Positions 5,240-60,161 of a stretch of DNA of 64,000 bases are shown in pieces. The notes beneath the pieces were generated by a model, which did no database searches, had not been told where the DNA came from, and saw nothing but the letters and a program-made list of their open reading frames with translations. The translations under genes and the position numbers were made by a program. Positions within the stretch are counted from its first letter, which is position 1. Every line of letters starts with the position of its first letter. The stretch comes from Eledone cirrhosa (taxonomy: Eukaryota). The stretch spans positions 243,164,001 to 243,228,000 of the forward strand of contig OZ024742.1 in assembly GCA_964016885.1 (NCBI GenBank), in the 5' to 3' direction.

Positions 5240-8200
5240 TGTATCTTACATTGCCCATGGAGTACGCTAAGTCAGCGAAGGGAAAATGAAACATGTGTCA
5301 GTGAAAACGAGGTAAATTGTAACACTTCGAATCCCAGGGTTGGGGCGGAATCACTGGCAACAGAACAAATTAAAGAAAGGATCGAAAAAGTGGAGGGAGT
5401 GCATGCTCAAGATGAAACTCCAAATGAAAACAATGAGATCGTAAATGATAAAGAAATGAATGAGAATAAACTTGCCAACTTGAAGGATGAAATTATGATC
5501 GAATGGATGAAAATGAAAGAATCTGACATGGGGGAACGAGACACCCTCCCTAAGATCCAGAACTCCAAACAGAACCAAAAGATAATACACAAGACTAACA
5601 TAATTCTCAAAAACATTATCATCACAAACAAACTAAACATTACTGATTTTAATCATCTCTATTATGCATCGGCTAAAGTCACCACTCACTTATGTGAAGT
5701 GAAGATGAAAAAACAAAGGAATCCCCACAAGAAATCTACTTGGCAAGAGAACATCAATCGCCAAATAAACCTTCTCCGATCTGACATAGAAATTTTAACA
5801 AACTATAAAGTAGGTGAACATGTTAAACAAACTAAACTTAGAAAATTAAAAAGAAAGTACAGTATAAAATCAACAAGTGACATAGACATGCTGATAGAAA
5901 TAATCAAGCAAAAAGTGTCGGCCAAAGCTGTTCGTATAAGGCGCTTTGAAAAACGATCTAGATTCTATAAGGACAATAATATGTTCAAAAACAACCAAAG
6001 AAACTTCTACAGAAAAATTGGTAAGTCAACAATAACTGCTAAATCAATACCACACAAGGAGGAAGTGCAAGAATTCTGGGAAAAGATCTGGGCCGAAGAA
6101 AAAGTTCATAACATACATGCCCCATGGATAAATGAAAGATACAGCTCACCTTGAGGAACAAATATGGGAAAATATAACAGTTGAACAGTTGCGTTTGGCT
6201 CTAAGAAAAACCAGCAAATGGAAATCCCCAGGAAAAGACAAAATACAAAATTTCTGGATAAATGCCTTCACAGAGTCTCATGAGCTGTTAGCCCAACTTT
6301 ACAATGAAATAGTTAAGGAGCCAGAAAAGATACCATCATGGCTAGTTAACGGCATTACATTCCTGCTTCCGAAGAATGATGAGACAAACAATCCCAAAAA
6401 TTACAGACCGATAACTTGCTTGACCACAATGTATAAAATTTTAACATCAGTCCTAACTAAATATACATATGACCACCTGATAACAAATGACCTATTTCCC
6501 ATTGAGCAGAAAGGGTGTAAACCAGGCTCATATGGCTGTAAGGATCAGCTTTTGGTTAACAGAATGATACTGGAAGATTGTCATAATAGACACAAAAATC
6601 TATCGATTGCTTGGATAGATAATAAAAAAGCATTCGATAGTTTGCCACACAGTTGGATTGAAAAATGTTTAGAGATTTTCAAAATATCTCCCGTTGTCAG
6701 GAGGTTTTTGTCATTCAGTATGAAGACATGGAAAACGACACTCCTTTTGAATAGTGAAACAAAATCACTGGAAGCTGGAGAAGTTAATATTAATTGTGGA
6801 ATTTTTCAGGGTGACTCTTTATCACCGCTTTTATTCTGAATCGCACTTATACCATTAAGTAAAATGCTCAATGAAACAACACATGGATATAAAGTCTATG
6901 ACAAAACCATTAATCACCTGTTCTACATGGATGACCTGAAACTATTTGCAAAAAATGATGAACAATTGCAAGGGCTATTATCCACTGTGAAGCAGTTCAG
7001 TGATGACATTAAAATGGAGTTTGGACTGGATAAATGCGCCAAAGCAACGTTCACCAGAGGAAAGCTGCTGAAGAGTTCAGACATTAATCTTGATCGGGAG
7101 AACGTGATAAGAGAGCTTGATCAAGAAAAAACTTACAAATATCTAGGTGTTTGTGAAGGAGACGGAATCAAGCACTCGACAATGAGGGAAAGGATAAGGA
7201 AGGAATGTTACCGCAGAGTCAGAGCAATCTTAAGAACGGAATTGAATGCAAGGAATAGGATCGATGCCATAAACACGCTTGCCATACCAGTAGTGACCTA
7301 CAGTTACAATGTCATCAACTGGTCAAGCACAGAGATCCGTAGGCTCGATACAAAAATCCGAAAATTCTTAACCATGCACAGAATGCATCACCCTAAGGCA
7401 GACATAGATAGAATATATCTCCCTAGGAAAGAAGGAGGACGTGGGTTAATCCAGTTAGACATTGCGTTGAAAACTGCAACAATTGGATTATCCACATATC
7501 TAAGGGAATCACATGATTGGATGATCAAACTCGTTTTGAAATACGAAAGCACCAAAAGATCATATTCCATTACAAAAGATGTACAAAGATACAGTAATGG
7601 ACTACAAATTTCAGAAGTCCCATTTACTGCTGAAATGGAAAACACAGAAAAAGCAAAGCAGGTAAAAGTAACTGCAAAGAAAGAACTGCTACAGAAACTG
7701 GCTAAGAAATGGCAAGAAAAGCCTCTGTATGGAAAATACCCAGAGCGAGCTAACAATCCTGATGTTGACAAAACTTTAACCCATCAGTGGTTGGCATCCT
7801 CTGGACTGAAATCGGAGACTGAAGGACTGATTATATCGGCACAAGATCAGTGTCTACAAACAAAAAATTACCAAGCCAACATAATAAAAAATGGGTGCAG
7901 CCCATTATGCCGTGTATGCAAAAAACAACCAGAGACCATTGACCATATAATTTCAATGTGCAGTCCTATAGCTCCAACCGAATACCTAAACAGGCATGAC
8001 AGAGCTGCACAATACATACATTGGATAATGTGTAAGCATTTTGACCTGCCCCATCAAAAGAATTGGTGGGAGCATCAACCACCTCCCATACTTGAAAAAG
8101 ATCACATCTCAATCTTGTGGAACTTTAGCATCCAAACAGACCGAAAAATAGATGCAAATAGACCTGATATAATATTGAAGGACTTTCAAAGGAGGGTATG

Positions 8201-8641
8201 CCTGCTAATTGATATGTCTGTTCCAATAGACAAGAATGTATCTATAAAAACATTTGAAAAATTGAGCAAGTATAAGGACCTGGAGATAGAAATTGGAAAA
8301 ATGTGGAAATTGAGAACTAAAACAATACCAGTGGTTGTAGGCGCTCTGGGAATGATACCTAAGGGGTCTAACGACTACTTATCGCAAATCCCAGGAAACC
8401 CGCGTATAGGAGAAATACAAAAGATAGTACTAATGGGAACTGCCCATATACTAAGGAAGATCCTGTCAATATAAGTACAACACAAGTCTAAACACTAAGG
8501 ATGCATGTGTGAATATGTATGTTCTTTCTTGAACATGGCGGACCTTATTGTCTCTTGAGGTCACTGGTTGTGACTTGGTGATAACTCGTATGAACATAAA
8601 GCAAGATAAATGCAAATAATAATAATAATAATAATAATAAA
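5240..8641 (+). mobile_element. R4/Dong-like RLE non-LTR retrotransposon, probably 5'-truncated, ending in (AAT)n
   Basis: RT followed by CCHC knuckle and PD-type endonuclease; 3' UTR 8475-8614; (AAT)n 8615-8641. Confidence 0.92.
5390..8474 (+). pseudogene. RT-RLE polyprotein with one frameshift (about 6132-6154) and one TGA (6837-6839)
   Basis: WKSPGKD, NYRPITCL, EQKG, DNKKAFDS, GIFQGDSLSPLLF, HLFYMDDLK, YKYLG, CRVCKKQPETIDHIISMC, RHD, NRPDII..IDMSVP..KYKDL; frame is open upstream to 5240. Confidence 0.93.
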
Positions 8642-9618
8642 ACAACCTACACAAATACGTGACTGATAGTAGGGATCCAATGCTCAGAATTGTACTGAAG
8701 GAGAGGACAATAGACCAGGGGATGTCCAAGGAGGAAATAACAACAAGGAGAAAGAGCAACCTTCATGAAAAATCCCTTCATAGTACCTTCTTTGAGAAAA
8801 CTGAATTCAGAGATCCACAGACATGGAACTGGTTGAAAAGAGGAGACCTTAAAAAGGCTACAGAAGGAATGCTAATGGCTGCGCAAGAGCAGGCCCTCAA
8901 AACGAAGTGGCTGAAACACCATATTTACAAGGAGGAGGCTAGCCCACTGTGTAGGATCTGTGGAGAGAGAGAGGAGACTGTGGCTCACATTGTATCTGAG
9001 TGTAAACACCTAGCCCAGACTCACTATAAAGGCTGGAGACATTATGTGATGGGCAGGGTGATCCACTGGCACCTATGCAAAGTAAACAATTTACCCCATT
9101 CTGAGAAGTGGTATGAGCATAAGCCAGAGTCGGTGATAGAAAACAATCAGGTGAAGGTGCTGTGGGATTTTAGGATACAGACGGACAAGAAACTGAAACA
9201 CAATAGACCTGACCTGGTGGTTTTGGACAAGGAAAAAAGATCGTGCCTGATTGTGGATGTGGCCTGCCCATTAGACACGAGAGTGCAAGAGAAGGAGAGG
9301 GAGAAAATTAACCGATACCAGGACTTAAAGTGGGAGGTAAAAAGGATTTGGAACTGCCATGAAGTCAAAGTGGTCCCGATTGACATAGGCGCACTAGGTA
9401 CTATCTCAAAGAGTTTCCAAGGATGGTTAAAGAAAATTGGTCACGCCCTGCTTTTTGGAACACTTCAAAAGGCATGCTTGCTGGGAACAGCAAGAACCCT
9501 CCGATACGTCCTGAATATCTGAGGCTGCAAGTAATGGCTTAATATTCATTTCAACAAACTTTCCAGTTAAATAACATCAATGACTGAGACTCAAAGAACA
9601 ATAATAATAATAATAATA
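8642..9618 (+). mobile_element. Second, divergent R4/Dong-like element (5'-truncated, RLE domain open) ending in (AAT)n
   Basis: ORF 8659-9522: AAQEQAL, CRICGEREETVAHIVSEC, HNRPDLVV..VDVACP, LQKACLLGTARTLR; (AAT)n 9599-9618. Confidence 0.92.
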
Positions 9619-15282: not shown

Positions 15283-15319
<37 letters not shown>

Positions 15320-15322
<3 letters not shown>

Positions 15323-15885
15323 CTGAATATAAAAGAAAAACACGAACACAGATATATACATATATGTGTTCAAATCGCAAGGGACCAGATTCGCTAAGGT
15401 GAAAAGGTTACTAACTATAGGCAATGGGATTTGCCAGACTCAATTTAAGAATAAATCAAGAAAGTAAATACAAACCAGAATTGTGGTAACTACCAATCAC
15501 CCAGACAGCTTTGATCATGCTGTTTCGCAAAATTAATTGTTCACCTGCTGATGAGCAAGAATTGGTATTCCTCTTCACAATTAATATTGCGAAACAGCAT
15601 TATCAAAGCTGTCCGGGTGATTGGTAGTTACCACAATTCTGGTTTGTATTTACTTTCTTGATATATTCTTAAATTGAGTCTGGCAAACCATATTGTCTAT
15701 AGTTAGTATTCTTTTCACCTTAGCGAATCTGGTCCCTTACGATTCAAACACATATATGTATATGGCTGTGTTCGTTTTTCTTTTTAGTTCAGTTATAATA
15801 TACGGCTCGGAAAAATCTCTTTCCTAGAGCTATTTTATTGTAAGAGGCTATTTTGACTTTCTAACTCAATATATACCTTTGATAT
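15320..15885 (+). mobile_element. PLE pseudo-LTR insertion: inverted arm 15320-15540, direct arm 15577-15796 plus tail, between (TA)n tracts
   Basis: About 220-bp inverted repeat enclosing the 5' half of a complete HHR. Confidence 0.85.
15541..15620 (+). ncRNA. Complete canonical type I hammerhead ribozyme motif
   Basis: TCACCTG/CGGGTGA stem I, CTGATGA, GCAA/TTGC, GAAA, CAGC/GCTG stem III, site GUC (15613). Confidence 0.92.
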
Positions 15886-15892
15886 ATATATA

Positions 15893-17256
15893 TTTATTTA
15901 GGTTTGTTGCTTTACCACTGGATAGAACTGGTCATTCCGTATGGTCAACCTCGATGTAATATTATGGAGAACACTCAACATAATGCAACTCACCCGTCTT
16001 CGTTTGTATAGTTGGTGGTGCGAGTACGGAGTTAATTATTATAAAATAACAGGAGGCTGGACTGGTGTAATTCCTTGAAAGGTTTATTATACTATGATCA
16101 GTGACCGAGTTCAGTATGAATCCGGTGACATCATCAGGTATTTGAAATATAACAAAGGAATATAATAGACAAAATCCATGGGGCTGAAAATCAGAGACAT
16201 GAGGGCGACCGAACATTTAGCAGCTTCTACCCCTGTCGGCCGCCCTCAAGTGGTGATTATTAAGCCCACTTATGTCCATCTGGTGAAGGGGCGTAGGCTT
16301 ATAGTGTACTACTACCACCCCGTCAAAGACAGAGGCCAGCGTTGAGATCAGGTTACAAGCTGGTCATGAGTGCTAGAAAGTGCCGCGAAAAATATTATTT
16401 CAAAGAACATATATCTCTTCAACAAAGCTACATATAGTAATATATAGTGGGCGTCTGCATGGTATAATGTAAGGACAGAAATTACGATTAACAATTAGAA
16501 ACGTTAAATTTATGTTTAGATTTAGAAGATGCCATTTAAGATGAAATTAGAAAAATAAGGTTTAGGTTTAAAGTTATGAGATTTAGTTAAAGGAATTTAC
16601 AGAAAGAGGCTTTTATGAAAAAGTGTAAGTGTATTATAGATAGTCACGATAAAGTTTCAAGGTAGAATATAGATATGCTTAGCGGTCAATAACCAGCGAC
16701 GTCGCGGACCCCAGCTAGCCTGGGGCTCAACGGCGTGTCAGCCGTTCCGAGTATTATCGTCTAGAGAAAGAAATGGAAATTTATTTTTCCGAGCACTCCA
16801 GGAATGTTACTGTCTTGAGCGTCGGGTGAGTTAGCGGGAAGTCTGCCACCGTCGGCTGGCCATCGTATATACCAAACGATAACTAGTTATTCACACCGGT
16901 GGGGGATTTAGTTAAATGTTAGTAGAAGGAGGCAAGATAAAGTTAAAAGTTATGATTAAGCCTAGAATTTAAAGGTACTGTTCGGCGGTCAATAACCGGT
17001 GGCGCGGCGGGTTCCAAGTCTGACAGGGCCCCAGGGCGAAGCAGCCATTCCGAGTAATTTCGTTTGCCGAAAGAAGGGGAAATTTATTTTTCCAAGCACT
17101 CTAGGAGGGCTGATCGAGCCGAGCGCCTGGTCGGATCATCACGTGTACCAAACGATTATTCGTTATTCACACCCGTGATGTGAAGTTGAAAGTGGTAAAA
17201 TCTGATGAAATGTGTAAATAGACTACATTTAGTCCCCAGTTAGTCCGAGTTATATG
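15893..17256. mobile_element. Apparently non-coding structured repeat, copy 1 (tail, broken minus-strand HHR, hairpin domain, two tandem structured motifs)
   Basis: Colinear with 23010-24377 and, over 16065-16640, with 17915-18482; no recognisable protein. Confidence 0.8.
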
Positions 17257-17746
17257 TAGTGTGATTCTTGGGTGGGTAGGGGGAGTGAATAAAGATAAAC
17301 AGATATAAGGGTACAGAGAGTAATATTCTAGGGTCGTGTGCTAATGAGTACAAGGATAAGTATATAATGAGAGTAAAGTGAGTAAATAAATACATAAATA
17401 AAAATATAAGTAAAATACATAAATCAAATGCAGTCATAACTAGGGTGGTGATGCAGGGAGTAAAGAGGAAGTATATAAGAACATATCGAAGAAATCAAAT
17501 ACAGGAGAAATAAAATACAGATCAGGTGCAATTGGAGAATACAAAGTTATACATATATATATAGAGGATGGAAAAGTTGGCATGGTATCAGGTGATACCT
17601 AGTATATGTTCGAGTCTTAATTTTCAATGTGAATCCCAAAAGCCCTGAAATATAGGATAGAGAATTCAGTCAATACAATACAGGGTGTAGTAGAATATGC
17701 AGATTCTCTGAAGAATCTATACATATGTATATATATATATATATAT

Positions 17747-18482
17747 TTCGTTTCTGAATTTGTTTAGCAAAATTCTTTATCTGAAAATGTGTGTTGAAAC
17801 CGATATTGTTATGCTTTGGGAGGGTCATGTTGCCAATAAGAAACACACTCACCAGTTGCTTTCACTCCAATTTATTATAAGTTAAATTTATAAATTTTCG
17901 GTTGGTTGGACTTGTGTAAATCCTTGAAAGGTTTATTATACTATGATCATTTCAATGACCGGGTTCCGTATGAATCCGGTGATATCATCAGGTGTTCGAA
18001 ATATAACAAAGGAATATAACAGATAAAATCCATGGGGCTAAAAATCATAGACAAGGGGACGACCGACCATGTAGCATCTTCTACTTTAGTCGGTCGCCCC
18101 CAAATGTTGGCTATTCGGTCTACTTATGACCATCTGGTGAGGGGGTGAAAGCTTATAATGTACTACTACCTCCCCGTCAAAGAGAAAAAAGAAGAAAGAA
18201 AGAAGAGAAGTCAGCGTTAAGGTCGTGCTACAATCAGGCTAGAAATTGCCGCGAAAAATGTTTTTCCAAAGAACCTATATCTTAACAGAGGCATATAGTG
18301 GGCGTCTGTCTGTATGGTATAATGTGTGAACAGAAAATTGTAGCGTTAAACTTATGTTTAGAGTTATAGGATGAAATTTAAAAAATTTAAAAATTTAAAA
18401 AAGTTTAAGGTTTGGGTTGTGAGATTTAGTTAAAGAATTTACAGAGAGAGTCTCATATGAAAAAGTTTAAGTGTATTATAGA
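17747..18482 (-). mobile_element. Structured repeat, divergent partial copy 3 with a different tail
   Basis: 17915-18482 aligns to 16065-16640; 17747-17909 aligns to 45601-45800. Confidence 0.8.
17937..17996 (-). ncRNA. Type I hammerhead motif
   Basis: Minus strand ACAC-CTGATGA-TATCACCGGATTC/GAACCCGGTCATT-GAAA-TGATCA-TA-GTAT. Confidence 0.8.
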
Positions 18483-21261: not shown

Positions 21262-21538
21262 AAGAGTGAAGAATAACATGATCGGCTGTTCAAAAAGGGT
21301 TTTATTTACAGTATTAACAATTGTTTCATTGATCAGGTGAGTTTAAAGGCCGCTAATCATTCGGAATTGTGTCACTCGACCTTAAATACAGTGTGTGTCT
21401 TCTGATCAAATCATCGGAATACTGGTATTCCGATGATTTGATCAGAGACACACACGGCCTTTTAACAATTGTTAATACTGTAAATAAAACCCTCTTTGTA
21501 CAACCGACCATGTTATTCTTCACTCTTTCACTACTATA
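21262..21538. mobile_element. Rearranged PLE pseudo-LTR with nested inverted repeats and split HHR halves; further arm at 22498-22568
   Basis: 21262-21352 inverted against 21456-21528; palindrome 21392-21455 contains GTATT-CCGATGA; GAAA-CAATTG-TT-AATAC on the minus arm. Confidence 0.7.
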
Positions 21539-21547
21539 TATATATAG

Positions 21548-22446
21548 AAGTGGTTACACAACAGTTAGTTTACCATACCGAGAACAATTGTTTCACCTTA
21601 GCGGATCCTCAGCTCGTAATGGACATGGTTATACGGAACAGGAAGGACAACCATATGAACGCGCATGCGCAGGAACCGTCACTTCACACAGGCAATACTA
21701 AAAAGCGTGCGAGAGGTGTAAGGGAGATAACTGCGAAAGTCCGAAAAGTTTCTAGTTGATAAGAAAATTAGGATGTTGTGATTCAATCCGGAGCTTTGTA
21801 GTTATGTAAGAGGTGTTTCGAGACGTGTGGACAACGTGTGAAGAATTCATTACTCGTGTTTAGGCAATCATTATTGCATAATCTCTTTAGAATATTTATT
21901 CGTTCATCAATACATAGACCACGAGACGGATTTCCCCTTGCGTATAGCTTGGACTTAGTGATGGCTTTCCATTGAATGGAGTAGTCTATACTTGCGTCCT
22001 TGAGGGACAATACGTGACTCGCGAGTTTCGTGGATGAACGTATTGCCGGGTACCTAAAGGTCGACTGGTGGTTCAGGAAGCGTTCCTTAAATCGGCCCTC
22101 CGCGCATACCCACATAGGATTTGACCTCCTGTGGTTGATTTGGTCGGTTGGAAGTGACCACAGCTTCATAAATTACAGCGGGTGTCTTGCATTGCTGTTG
22201 AAGGGGACACGCTTCGGGCTTACGGCAAGAGCACCATGGTGGGTGTTGCTCTTAGGGCTATTGGGGATGTGGGCCTTCATGTTCTTAGCGCAGGAGTATC
22301 CTAGTTTTACTTTGTGTCGGTTAAAGATGGAGCGGTATTTATGACCTATGGGAAAGTGTCTATCTAAGAGGGCTAGAAATGTTTTGCCTACGTTGGTTTT
22401 AACGTTGAGTGAGAAGGGAGGAGAGAACCAGATAGTTTGTCTATTG

Positions 22447-22566: not shown

Positions 22567-24377
<1,811 letters not shown>

Positions 24378-34360: not shown

Positions 34361-34899
34361 TGTTTATTTCATTAGTCTTACATTTATTGTGTTTTCATGT
34401 CACAACTAAATTTGTGTAACTGGGGTACAAACAGCAATGTTTTTATATATTGTTCTATTTCACTACAACGATACTCGGCATTCCACGGGTAATAAAGCCC
34501 TAAGTTGATGATCTCAGACCTGCCAACCTCTGAAAACCCTAAACGGAGAGTACCATGAAAAAACCTGCTCCAAAACGGGGAGAAATTAGACAAAATGGGG
34601 AGATTTTACATAATGAAAGCTCTGATCAATTTGTTGTCATAATCGCATTGTCATAATCCTTTCTTACAAAGATAACAGGATGTTTTACTTTCTAAACTTT
34701 TATGCACACACACATGCACACATTCATACATACTTCACATTCCCAATCTTTATATATATATCTTTTTTTTCGATAAACACTTCCCACCCTAACACCGCTA
34801 CCACAATATCATCAACAGAAACACTGTTAAACTTTCCTACAGCACTACACCCAACTTTGCACAAAACATTTCTTCATCTAACAACAAAAAACACCTCTC

Positions 34900-36218
34900 T
34901 AACAAAAGAAACAACAATGATATTAGTGGAGAGAAAACTAGGAGAGAAAACTAGATCATCGTGCCCCCTCAACAATAGATGCCGAGAACGAAATGTGGTC
35001 TACCAGTGCAATGTGAGGACGGAAAACTAAAACAAGGCCTACATCGGATTAATCACCTGCGATTTTAAGACCCGGTATTATCAACACCAACACACATTTA
35101 GAAACCCGGCTCGGCGACACGCAACAGCACTTTCTGGCCATATTTGGGACCCCCAAGACAACAATATTACCTACCATCTAAGTTGGAGCATACTTTCCAA
35201 GGCAAAATCATACTCGGGAGGACGCCGTCCGTGTAATTTATGCTCCGAGGAAACGATCCAGATGCTGTTTGCAAAGGACCAACTCTTAAATAAAAAGGAT
35301 GAACTTATTACCTCGTGTAAACACAGAATACATAGGACATATCTTACCTTCAAACCCCCTCACGACCCAGGTGGGTAGACCTCGGCTGTATCTCTTTCCT
35401 ATTTACAAACTAAGATAGAGGAAGCCCAAAGCATACTTAGGTAGAAGTAAAATTTCTTTTCTTTTTTCTTCATTAGTTACACACTCTAATTACACTTAGG
35501 TGGATCTTTGCACATGTACACTATTATAATCAGTTTCTATTCGTGTTTAGGTTAACCCGGAATATTTTCACTCTTGTTAAATATACACAGAACCGGCCGA
35601 ACAGAGCCATGTTTTTTTTATATCATTATAAAAGAAAATACTAGTAAATTACTGTATAGAGGTGCCGTTCCAGTGCATTAGAGTAAATGATAACTAAATT
35701 TCATTTATTAAGAATTTAATTAGTATTAATATCTATATGCTTTGCTCTTTAGCTAAGTGATAGACCTGGCATACCTACTCTCACTCTAACACTCTTCCTT
35801 GATTCTCATATGCTGAATTTACTTTCTTACCCCTATTAGAGATAGTTGTAAAGATTTCTCTCTGAACGCCTGGCCGGCTTGGCAACCACAGATCAGAAAG
35901 TCATCTCCCCTCCTCCTTTGTTCTACGGGCCAGTTCAGCTCCACCCCACCCCCCACACACCGCTATGAAGGAATTTAACCATGTACATGACATCCCAAAA
36001 TCATTGACCCCTCTCCGTGACAGACAAGAAAAACAAAACATTGTTAGGATTGTTTGATTTGATACGTCTGCTTTTTTTGTTTTGATTGCATGCCCATATA
36101 TGGACTGTACCTCTTGATAAGTTCAGCTAGATCCCTGTCGTCCTAATACTGCTGGTTTACTTAGGATCTAGCTGTCGAAACGGCCGGAGGTCAGCCGTTG
36201 TGGTCCTGACTCTTTTCC

Positions 36219-48669: not shown

Positions 48670-51405
<2,736 letters not shown>

Positions 51406-57879: not shown

Positions 57880-60161
57880 CACTGGTCAACAGCCAAAATG
57901 GTTCTTACATCTGAATATGTGCATCTTACTAATTTCATAGCACTAAATTCAGTTTTGATATTCATTCTTTGCTATCGGACCAGAATGCCTTAATATGAGA
58001 TCGAAAATATGTTCCTCGTATTGCATTATTTATCCATTGTGTAACATATGATGACTTAGATATAAACATATTAACTTATTAATAAAAAATATATGAACAT
58101 ATTTTTATTTATTTTTTTAACACTTAGCATATTAACAAAACATTTCTGAACAACATTCTGAACATAACAAAATATTTCAAAACATTTCTAAAAGAATTTC
58201 TGGATTTTGCTTTTACGCTTGTTTTGCTGGCTCTCCTCACGTTGCAGTGTCCAGCAGTAGTCGCCCATCATGTTGGGATTGAACCGACCCTGATACCTAC
58301 TCTCCATTATGGCAATTTCCTGGTGAAACCTCTCTTCATGTTCATCACTGATGTCTCCTAGATTACTTGGGAAGAAATCCAGATGAGAATGGAAGAAATG
58401 AAGCTTCAACGACATTCGTGAACCCAGAGCGCGATAATTTTGTATCATGGTTTCAACAATTTCTTTATAGTTGTCCGCACGGTGGTTTCCAAGAAAGTTC
58501 TGTGTCACATCTACAAATGATTTCCATGCATTAGTCTCCAAAGGGTTTAGTGTTTTCGTAAACTCACTATCATTAACCAGCATACGAATCTGAGGACCAT
58601 TCAAAATCCCTGCTCTTAACTTTGCTTCAGATACCACTCTACCCAATTTCTTACACAAGTACTGAAACCCATTACCTGTATGATCCATGCTTTTAATAAA
58701 GTTTTTGGCCAAGCCTAATTTGAGATGTAATGGAGGGAGGAATACTTTTTCTGGATCCACGAGAGGTTTGTACAGACAGTTGAATCTACCGGGTGCATCC
58801 TTTGGTCTTGTTGGACAATCCTTCTTCATGTAGTGCTCTGCATCTGCTCTACTATTCCACGAACATAGAAAACACATATGCTTTGTGTAACCAGTCTGAA
58901 GACCTAGAAGTAGACAAATTATTTTGAGATCTCCACAAATTTTCCACTGGTGCTTCTGGTACTGAACTGAGGAAAGCAAAATCTTCATAGTTTCATAATT
59001 CTCAGTCATATTTGTTGCGTGTGCAATTGGTACGGAGGGAAGCCGATTTTCATTGTGGAGAAGGACTGCTTTTAGAGTATTTTTTCCTGAATCAATGAAC
59101 AACCTCCAATCATCTTGTTTGTATGAATCAGATTTACAGAGTTGTCGCATGAGAGAATCTGCATCATGACAATAGCAAAGGTTATTTTCCATTTTGAAAA
59201 ATGCTGGAAGTTGTTTATGACGATGACGAGCGGTTGTAATACGGACGCCAGGTTCCAGCAGGTTTCGTTGCTTCAGTCTTGATCCCAGGAGCTCTGCCTT
59301 CTCTTTAGACAAATGTGGGTCTCTAATGAGATCGTGAAGAGCTTCCTGGTTAAATGGCATGCGTTCACTTGTTTGATGTTCGTCTTGATAGTCATCATTA
59401 ATAGGGGCGCTACTGGAATCAGAACCAGAGAGTAGCACGTGTTCAGCAGGTGGAACTGGAACAGGTAATTTGTCACTGTGAGGTACTGGTTGGATTGCTG
59501 ACGAGATATCGGGGTATTGAAGTGTAGTTCGTGTCTTCACAGTTATTCCTTGGATGTTTATATGGCAGGAGTAGCAATCGTTATTGTGGTCTTTTGGTTC
59601 TCGCCACACCATTGGTATGGCAAATGGCAAACCAGAGCTTCGTTTCCCATTCTTCCATTCACTTAGGTGATTAACACATGACCTACACGCTATATGAGGC
59701 GCCCATTTCTTGTCCTGGTCTCCTAATGGACATTTGAAGTAGCATTTGTAGTTTACTCGAACTGCTTTTGTGATTGTTTTTTTTTATGCTTTCTGGGGTA
59801 AAGAGTCCACAAACATAGCAAAATCGGTCTGGGTCATTTACACATTTCCGGCGTTCCATCTCTCCCACTAGTCAAAGTTGTTGTGAATTATCCAAGAATA
59901 GCTGAGGATAGTTACAATTCTGTGATCTGAAACAAAAGCAGTAAATATAAATTAGTTAACAACTAAATATAGTGGATACAATTGGATGAAGTAATATGAG
60001 CCACATAGCTATGGGTCATAAACATGGATATGCTGGTTCTCAAAAACTAGACCCGATACAGCTTAACCGTTATCATATTCAGATTCTGCACACTTGATTA
60101 CCCTGGAATCATACTAAATTATACCAGAACCATGAAATGAATATTTTTTTGTTGACCAGTG
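57880..60161 (-). mobile_element. Full-length Chapaev3-type (CMC) DNA transposon
   Basis: TIR CACTGGTCAACA/TGTTGACCAGTG, 3-bp TSD TAA, internal transposase. Confidence 0.9.
58188..59868 (-). pseudogene. Chapaev3-type transposase, about 560 aa, with one frameshift in an A9 run (59777-59785)
   Basis: CVNDPDRFCYVCG, GDQDKKWAPHIACRSC, PMVWREPKDH..DCYSC, WRLFIDS, GDLK, PPLHLKLGL, MSLKLHFFHSH, SDEHEERFHQ. Confidence 0.9.

Follow-up and report, generated by a model that had tools for sequence, protein, structure and literature searches.

A conserved internal module with a predicted RNA fold in a hammerhead-bearing Penelope-like repeat of Eledone cirrhosa

The repeat and its surroundings in the window

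The window analyzed here is a 64,000-nucleotide stretch of contig OZ024742.1 from Eledone cirrhosa, a genome of 3.0 Gb in 1796 contigs with abundant TA microsatellites and retroelement debris. The original prediction had picked out four repeated units in two tandem pairs and placed them in a non-coding repeat with a minus-strand hammerhead. Both points held: the four units could be aligned with 122 of 257 columns invariant, and the nature of the repeat was confirmed from its consensus, its open reading frames and a hammerhead scan. The units are copies of an internal module that has been duplicated within a Penelope-like repeat; this repeat lacks ORFs, bears a hammerhead and is present in thousands of genomic copies. 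A unit-1 query returned 1182 candidate loci, and a pattern for the hammerhead region gave 5030 exact genomic matches (0 for the control). The monomer measures ~2065 nt in subfamily B, the subfamily of the two window copies (A and B in Table 1), 2.0-2.2 kb across subfamilies A-E and W, and ~2.9 kb in F; no open reading frame exceeds 116 codons in the consensus of subfamilies B and C, and none exceeds 87 codons in W.

Table 1. Features of the module-bearing repeat in the window
Feature	Position	Strand	Remarks
Copy A, subfamily B	15869..17720	minus	5'-truncated at a TA repeat; bounds from 29 other genomic copies and the consensus
3' tail or pseudo-LTR part of copy A	15869..16087	minus	Two preferred 3' ends, 15869 and 16037
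Type I hammerhead of copy A	16088..16143	minus	GAAA strand lost; from comparison with the consensus; core scan did not return it
Second hairpin, adjoining the hammerhead	16201..16247	minus	Apparent selection for minus-strand folding
Unit 1, copy A	16683..16899	minus	Predicted irregular rod with a Y-shaped tip
52-nt core of unit 1, copy A	16747..16798	minus	Predicted three-way junction
Unit 2, copy A	16986..17175	minus	28-nt private deletion
52-nt core of unit 2, copy A	17050..17101	minus	Conserved core
Subfamily C copy	17880..18482	minus	5'-truncated, stops before the module; intact hammerhead core at ~17935-17995
Copy B, subfamily B	22991..24376	minus	Hammerhead partly deleted; 5'-truncated; left bound approximate
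Unit 1, copy B	23779..23988	minus	16-nt deletion at its plus-strand start
Unit 2, copy B	24077..24293	minus	Aligned unit

In subfamilies A-D, the left ends of element copies clustered at the two sites that correspond to window positions 15869 and 16037, while the right ends were scattered. In an uncontrolled survey, TA runs bordered most of the element ends that we saw, which may reflect insertion into microsatellites. Partial tandems and inverted, 5'-truncated partner copies were common among the element loci, and two of eight loci picked for their tandem look (L329 and L333) contained two consecutive complete type I hammerheads. This hammerhead lies near the fixed end on the minus strand and has a long helix II with a U-U at its base; CUGAUGA, GAAA, the UA cleavage site and a palindromic helix III could all be read from the sense-strand sequence. 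The minimum-energy fold of a single copy did not yield the catalytic hammerhead fold. Both copies that carry the window units have a broken hammerhead, and that of the adjacent subfamily C copy is intact. Since the hammerhead is encoded on the minus strand, the window minus strand is the sense strand of the element. The whole monomer is strongly strand-skewed, its sense strand being C/U-rich with long pyrimidine tracts, and this skew makes it unlikely that the monomer as a whole forms a viroid-like rod.

Several other elements surround these copies. A different repeat, which has its own hammerhead core (position 15548, plus strand) and itself forms a long inverted repeat, occupies 15312-15868 and 22683-22990, and it adjoins the 3' end of the module-bearing element at a TA run; the junction is the same in both window copies and at a further genomic locus, L013. 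Across it, 15561-15990 and 22683-23108 are 96.5% identical, when the two element copies are ~88% alike, and co-mobilization or gene conversion is possible at this junction. An abundant autonomous Penelope family, for which a first look gave 48,907 candidates, is represented by its 3' part at 21500-22440 (minus strand); it has a hammerhead of its own at 21612, and its two 3' ends lie ~65 nt apart. A tail motif in common between this family and the module-bearing element was not significant (score 30.5 vs. a shuffled mean of 35), and this comparison brought to light no autonomous partner with a common 3' end. A set of 29 loci, selected for a single autonomous Penelope family, yielded no homologue of the module. 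Hammerhead-like cores were also seen at 37-108, 36320, 45989 and 52146, one of them with a weak Rfam HH9 match (E 3e-6, below the gathering threshold). By inspection of translations, 34626-35378, 50284-50664, 5240-9522 and 58188-59783 contain Penelope fragments, non-LTR reverse transcriptase reading frames and a transposase-like reading frame of 531 amino acids.

Judged by these features, the repeat that hosts the module classes as a non-autonomous Penelope-like element or a large retrozyme. Like the non-LTR retrozymes of animals, as the available parts of two sources describe them (PMC7229834; bioRxiv 10.64898/2026.07.22.740005), it is non-coding, has a type I hammerhead per unit and occurs in head-to-tail copies; the same texts suggest that those retrozymes use Penelope enzymes. 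The U-U at the base of helix II recalls the axolotl HHR_Amex2 type, so far as that type is described in the accessible text. However, the retrozyme monomers reported there span 51-972 bp, in a search limited to periods of 1000 bp, compared to 2.0-2.9 kb here, and the present element lies outside the short-monomer definition of a retrozyme (about 50-1000 nt). Furthermore, most copies here are 5'-truncated rather than arranged in arrays, which differs from the retrozymes as portrayed in those passages. To the extent covered by the portions available of PMC7229834 and bioRxiv 10.64898/2026.07.22.740005, no conserved internal RNA domain is described for retrozymes.

The likeness to Penelope-like elements with hammerheads in their pseudo-LTRs (pLTRs) extends to partial tandems, inverted truncated copies, two 3' start sites and, it appears, TA targets, as well as to a long helix II, a short helix I and a palindromic helix III (PMC8557442; PMC4209133; PMC11167929, in the parts available). 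The two 3' ends are ~170 nt apart here, in contrast to the 30-40 nt given in the accessible text for known Penelope-like elements. In an Anolis element, the available part of PMC11167929 maps a protein-binding RNA just behind the hammerhead and has reverse transcription start internally, also behind the hammerhead; the two fixed ends observed here match such an internal start. Unlike that protein-binding region, as placed in the same part of the source, the module lies 600-1400 nt upstream of the hammerhead.

Duplication history and conservation of the core

We resolved nine subfamilies with 15 unit consensuses, each built from 6-40 copies; 21 of 237 units, which fell into 20 small clusters with 1-2 units apiece, had been excluded. 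Their order, W, Z, Y, A, B, C, D, E, F, was inferred from copy divergence and shared changes. The oldest subfamily, W, has one unit, and its copies are 68-81% alike to the query; Z has two very different units, with copies 83-87% alike to the consensus; Y, represented by 6 copies, has one unit; and A has two near-identical units. In F, whose copies are 99-100% identical, unit 1 has been lost and unit 2 re-duplicated as a 505-nt tandem. Over this series, the module went through three duplications and twice fell back to a single copy. Single-unit forms that pre-date the A and F duplications occur at L247:1362-1725, L255, L261 and L291-L293, and at L074 and L085. The duplication spans ~305 nt and includes the spacer upstream of the motif. 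Subfamilies E and F contain further internal duplications besides that of the module, and duplication is thus not peculiar to it. Most hammerhead-anchored copies are too short to hold the module, so that the inserted cDNA can do without it.

Within each unit lies a core of 52 nt that changes far more slowly than its surroundings. Over 10 lineage steps across A-F, 29 substitutions fell on 519 core positions, compared to 320 on 1607 positions in the flanks, so that substitutions accumulated in the core at about a quarter of the flank rate and near the rate of the hammerhead window. Across the 15 units, 24 of 54 core columns were invariant, vs. 13 of 179 in the flanks. Between the two ends of the series, W and F, the core is the best-kept internal part of the element (38/52, vs. 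19/51 and 25/89). An exact core pattern gave 1267 matches in the genome (reversed control 0). In a profile search of 1.15 Mb of DNA, 505 of 514 matches had element flanks, and the remaining nine were weak (E 0.16 or more).

The core was the route by which subfamilies A, D, E, F, Z, Y and W first came to light, which biases the sample toward families that keep it. Three kinds of evidence nevertheless agree in pointing to conservation beyond this ascertainment. The B-to-C step, which was reached independently of the core pattern, shows 7/104 substitutions in the core vs. 49/319 in the flanks. Among the loci anchored on the hammerhead, at least two that extend as far as the module carry the core (L209 and L235; a further locus, L228, overlaps L063). 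Finally, when contig depth is summed over two public runs of one sample, maxima appear at the hammerhead end and at both cores, with 13,874 and 33,659 at the cores vs. 733-2,485 in adjacent bins, values that do not measure copy number. Three runs of this sample contain element DNA, as contigs only and strandless, and no RNA run was among the sequencing runs listed as containing the element.

Beyond the core, conservation is more local. The short blocks that the original prediction had listed are present in the window, with GGTCAATAACC deleted from the unit at 23779, and their conservation there stands; in the wider series, the outer blocks proved to be lineage-limited, GGTCAATAACC and GTTATTCACAC each occurring in 4/15 units and TACCAAACG in 7/15. 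Between each window unit and the consensus of its subfamily there are 9-19 substitutions, of which 2-4 are of the CpG type.

Predicted fold and its strand

The fold predicted to be shared among the units is a long, irregular hairpin, 150-200 nt in length, with a three-way junction at its tip. In plus-strand letters, the predicted parts of the junction are a GAGT/ACTC stem, a TTCG/CGAA hairpin and a GGAAA/TTTCC hairpin. With RNAalifold, the junction alone was recovered from the 15 consensus units, and 16 decayed copies gave almost no consensus (-5.9 on the minus strand and -0.6 on the plus strand), a result to which we attach no weight since one row, L319, was misoriented. Single window copies folded weakly on either strand (z -1.97/-1.42 and -0.34/-0.69), and sliding windows of 150 nt, which are shorter than the rod, gave no signal at the units.

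We then compared the strands. The original prediction had favored the plus strand on the grounds of G-U pairs, and this preference was not borne out: in 14 units, pairs of the predicted plus-strand folds contained 14 wobbles of their own strand and 17 of the opposite strand, while those of the minus-strand folds contained 58 and 9, respectively. The z-score was better on the minus strand in 11 of the 15 consensus units and on the plus strand in three, with one tie. A subfamily-A copy formed the rod on the minus strand at -85 kcal/mol (z -4.5; 0/200 shuffles), compared to -64.3 (z -1.35) on the other strand. In W, the same rod and junction were predicted on the minus strand from a stem whose sequence is largely different, and the plus strand folded otherwise. 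Consensus units that folded no better than shuffles included C_u1, E_u1 and Z_up, and a copy of the youngest subfamily, F, folded about equally on both strands (z -2.4 minus vs. -2.2 plus). Together, these predictions make the rod and junction more likely on the minus, or sense, strand.

Stability was next assessed along the lineage, with real descendants set against random placement of the same substitutions and the core held fixed. Over 13 steps, descendants were more stable than random in 10 on the minus strand (Stouffer z -4.9) and in 9 on the plus strand (Stouffer z -3.0), and 20 background windows gave values of about 0; 5 of 32 windows were skipped because they aligned badly or held too few changes. 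From Z to A, the predicted stability increases. The second hairpin, at 16201-16247, gave Stouffer z -4.7 on the minus strand and -2.0 on the plus strand (4 steps, across A-E), and it may be the real enzyme-binding site.

The covariation that had been proposed held in part. Across A-F, double compensations were at the level of the neutral null (6 vs. 5.5 on the plus strand; 6 vs. 7.0 on the minus strand), and strand-neutral pairs decayed alike to G-T and A-C (28 vs. 27, or 18 vs. 32 if child-defined). Two junction-proximal pairs passed from one Watson-Crick pair to another via a minus-strand wobble. Among the deepest units, W, Z_up and Z_dn, there was a modest excess of double Watson-Crick changes (26-27 vs. 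16.7-18 expected; P 0.012-0.015), where the P values pool six non-independent comparisons that count each unit pair twice and are mostly not significant singly. Over the same deep split, pair retention was in excess on the minus strand only (P 0.017 vs. 0.54). A fair summary of these models would be an invariant junction on a rod that is kept by re-pairing more than by pair-for-pair covariation.

Most of the smaller helices in the original prediction did not survive comparison with the other copies. CCCCAG/CTGGGG is private to the copy at 16683, where it arose by G>A and C>T changes from the consensus at CpG sites, and neither this helix nor GCGGG/TCTGC is among the pairs common to the units. 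The AATAAC/GTTATT pairing, read as a pseudoknot, encloses the other helices and is nested; it is absent in 9/15 units. A different pseudoknot, between GTGYR and an ACCAAA loop, looked good in B and failed in Z, Y and A. What remains of the functional RNA domain is a selected, apparently structured and unclassified module, more likely on the other strand from that proposed.

Possible roles of the module

We propose that the Y-shaped tip of the core binds a protein that the RNA needs for being copied in trans, a reading to which we give a probability of about 0.45; recognition by reverse transcriptase is the leading idea for the module. Under this proposal, read-through transcripts of tandem copies would carry the module, and the Penelope reverse transcriptase of another element would start near the hammerhead-side tail and copy the RNA into TA repeats. 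The module would raise the success of master copies by docking their RNA either on that enzyme or on a factor of the host that exports or stabilizes it. The site of action of the module would be the full transcript of master copies, given that its position is far upstream and that most short insertions lack it. The docking or export role is suggested by analogy with the Alu domain and with retroelement transport elements. CTE and the Alu domain are known as transport or docking domains of retroelement RNA. The musD transport element is likewise a cis-acting structured RNA in a retroelement transcript, as far as the available text presents it (PMC5784592). Domains of the musD, CTE and Alu type are similar in size to the module, but they belong to a different class of element and show no sequence or Rfam model match here, so that the analogy is one of function alone. 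In the part available of bioRxiv 10.64898/2026.07.22.740005, the mechanism by which reverse transcriptase is borrowed in trans is described as still to be worked out.

The core is mostly invariant, which is equally compatible with a DNA element, and we also considered whether it might be an internal promoter or enhancer, with factor sites of the GGAAA/TTTCC type, that drives the next tandem copy and to which the rod is secondary. Near-invariance rather than covariation fits this explanation, repeated tandem duplication would suit an enhancer, and an internal TATA-less promoter is reported for Drosophila Penelope in the available part of PMC2377424. However, the flanking stems have been rebuilt with new sequence while folding stability was kept, the closing pair of one core hairpin is altered in W and F, copies show no clustering of their 5' ends at the core, and arrays extend beyond two monomers; we consider a DNA element rather unlikely. 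It is distinctly unlikely that the structure serves to shield the RNA, either by hiding an AAUAAA in a hairpin loop or by blocking nucleases on hammerhead-cut, uncapped RNA. The predicted rod is long and stable, and the minus-strand GGAAA/UUUCC loop reads AAUAAA in 9/15 units and AGUAAA in 1/15, but the hexamer is absent from the single-unit W and from four other units, and mutating the signal away would be simpler than maintaining a structure around it. Slightly less likely again, in our view, is that a structured sequence was once captured and is now carried along by successful master copies, which would make the module a relic. Outer helices that are decayed or deleted in C-F, covariation that is not significant in A-F and the core-based ascertainment would all suit a relic, whereas the slow, hammerhead-like rate of the core, its standing as the best-kept internal part between W and F and the rise in predicted stability from Z to A argue against one.

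A catalytic role for the junction appears improbable, more so than a relic. A second ribozyme that cuts, joins or circularizes the transcript together with the hammerhead would make the element a two-ribozyme parasite of Penelope enzymes; the compact three-way junction with invariant joining bases, its place in an element that already bears a ribozyme and the lack of an Rfam class are consistent with this idea. Yet 5' truncations are not clustered in or near the core in A-D, a cut in mid-monomer would shorten the template, and neither strand of the junction contains hammerhead core motifs. Least probable of all is a functional RNA on the plus, antisense strand with the helices and pseudoknot first listed. 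The stability excess extends to that strand, one pair changes via a plus-strand wobble and 3/15 units score better on it, but Watson-Crick stems fold on both strands, so that a weaker mirror signal is expected; the wobble counts, the deep-split pair retention and the W fold favor the minus strand, and the proposed pseudoknot turned out to be nested and lost from most units. A translation element, also among the functions originally suggested, is unlikely since no open reading frame follows the module on either strand.

An Rfam search, proposed at the outset as a check, gave no match to the units among the matches listed for the window (150 of 170), and nothing better than E 1.6 was obtained with the full monomer or an old two-unit copy. 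Apparent likenesses to motifs of RNase P, 5S rRNA, group I/II introns, IRES and telomerase RNA were dropped for want of Rfam support. The exact core pattern, for which an exact match is needed, had 0 matches in viral, metagenome and prokaryotic collections, which hold few animal sequences. The literature covered, mostly open-access main texts, contained no description of the element or of an internal conserved domain in animal retrozymes. The RNA module appears to be undescribed, within a known kind of element.

These results come from one genome and the covariation is modest; nevertheless, the subfamily series behind them is deep and closes with copies that are nearly identical. Should the module turn out to be a relic or simply a promoter, the repeat would be an ordinary, if unusually long, retrozyme family. 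As it stands, the 52-nt core has remained nearly fixed while most of the surrounding 2 kb turned over, and it offers a small, defined target.
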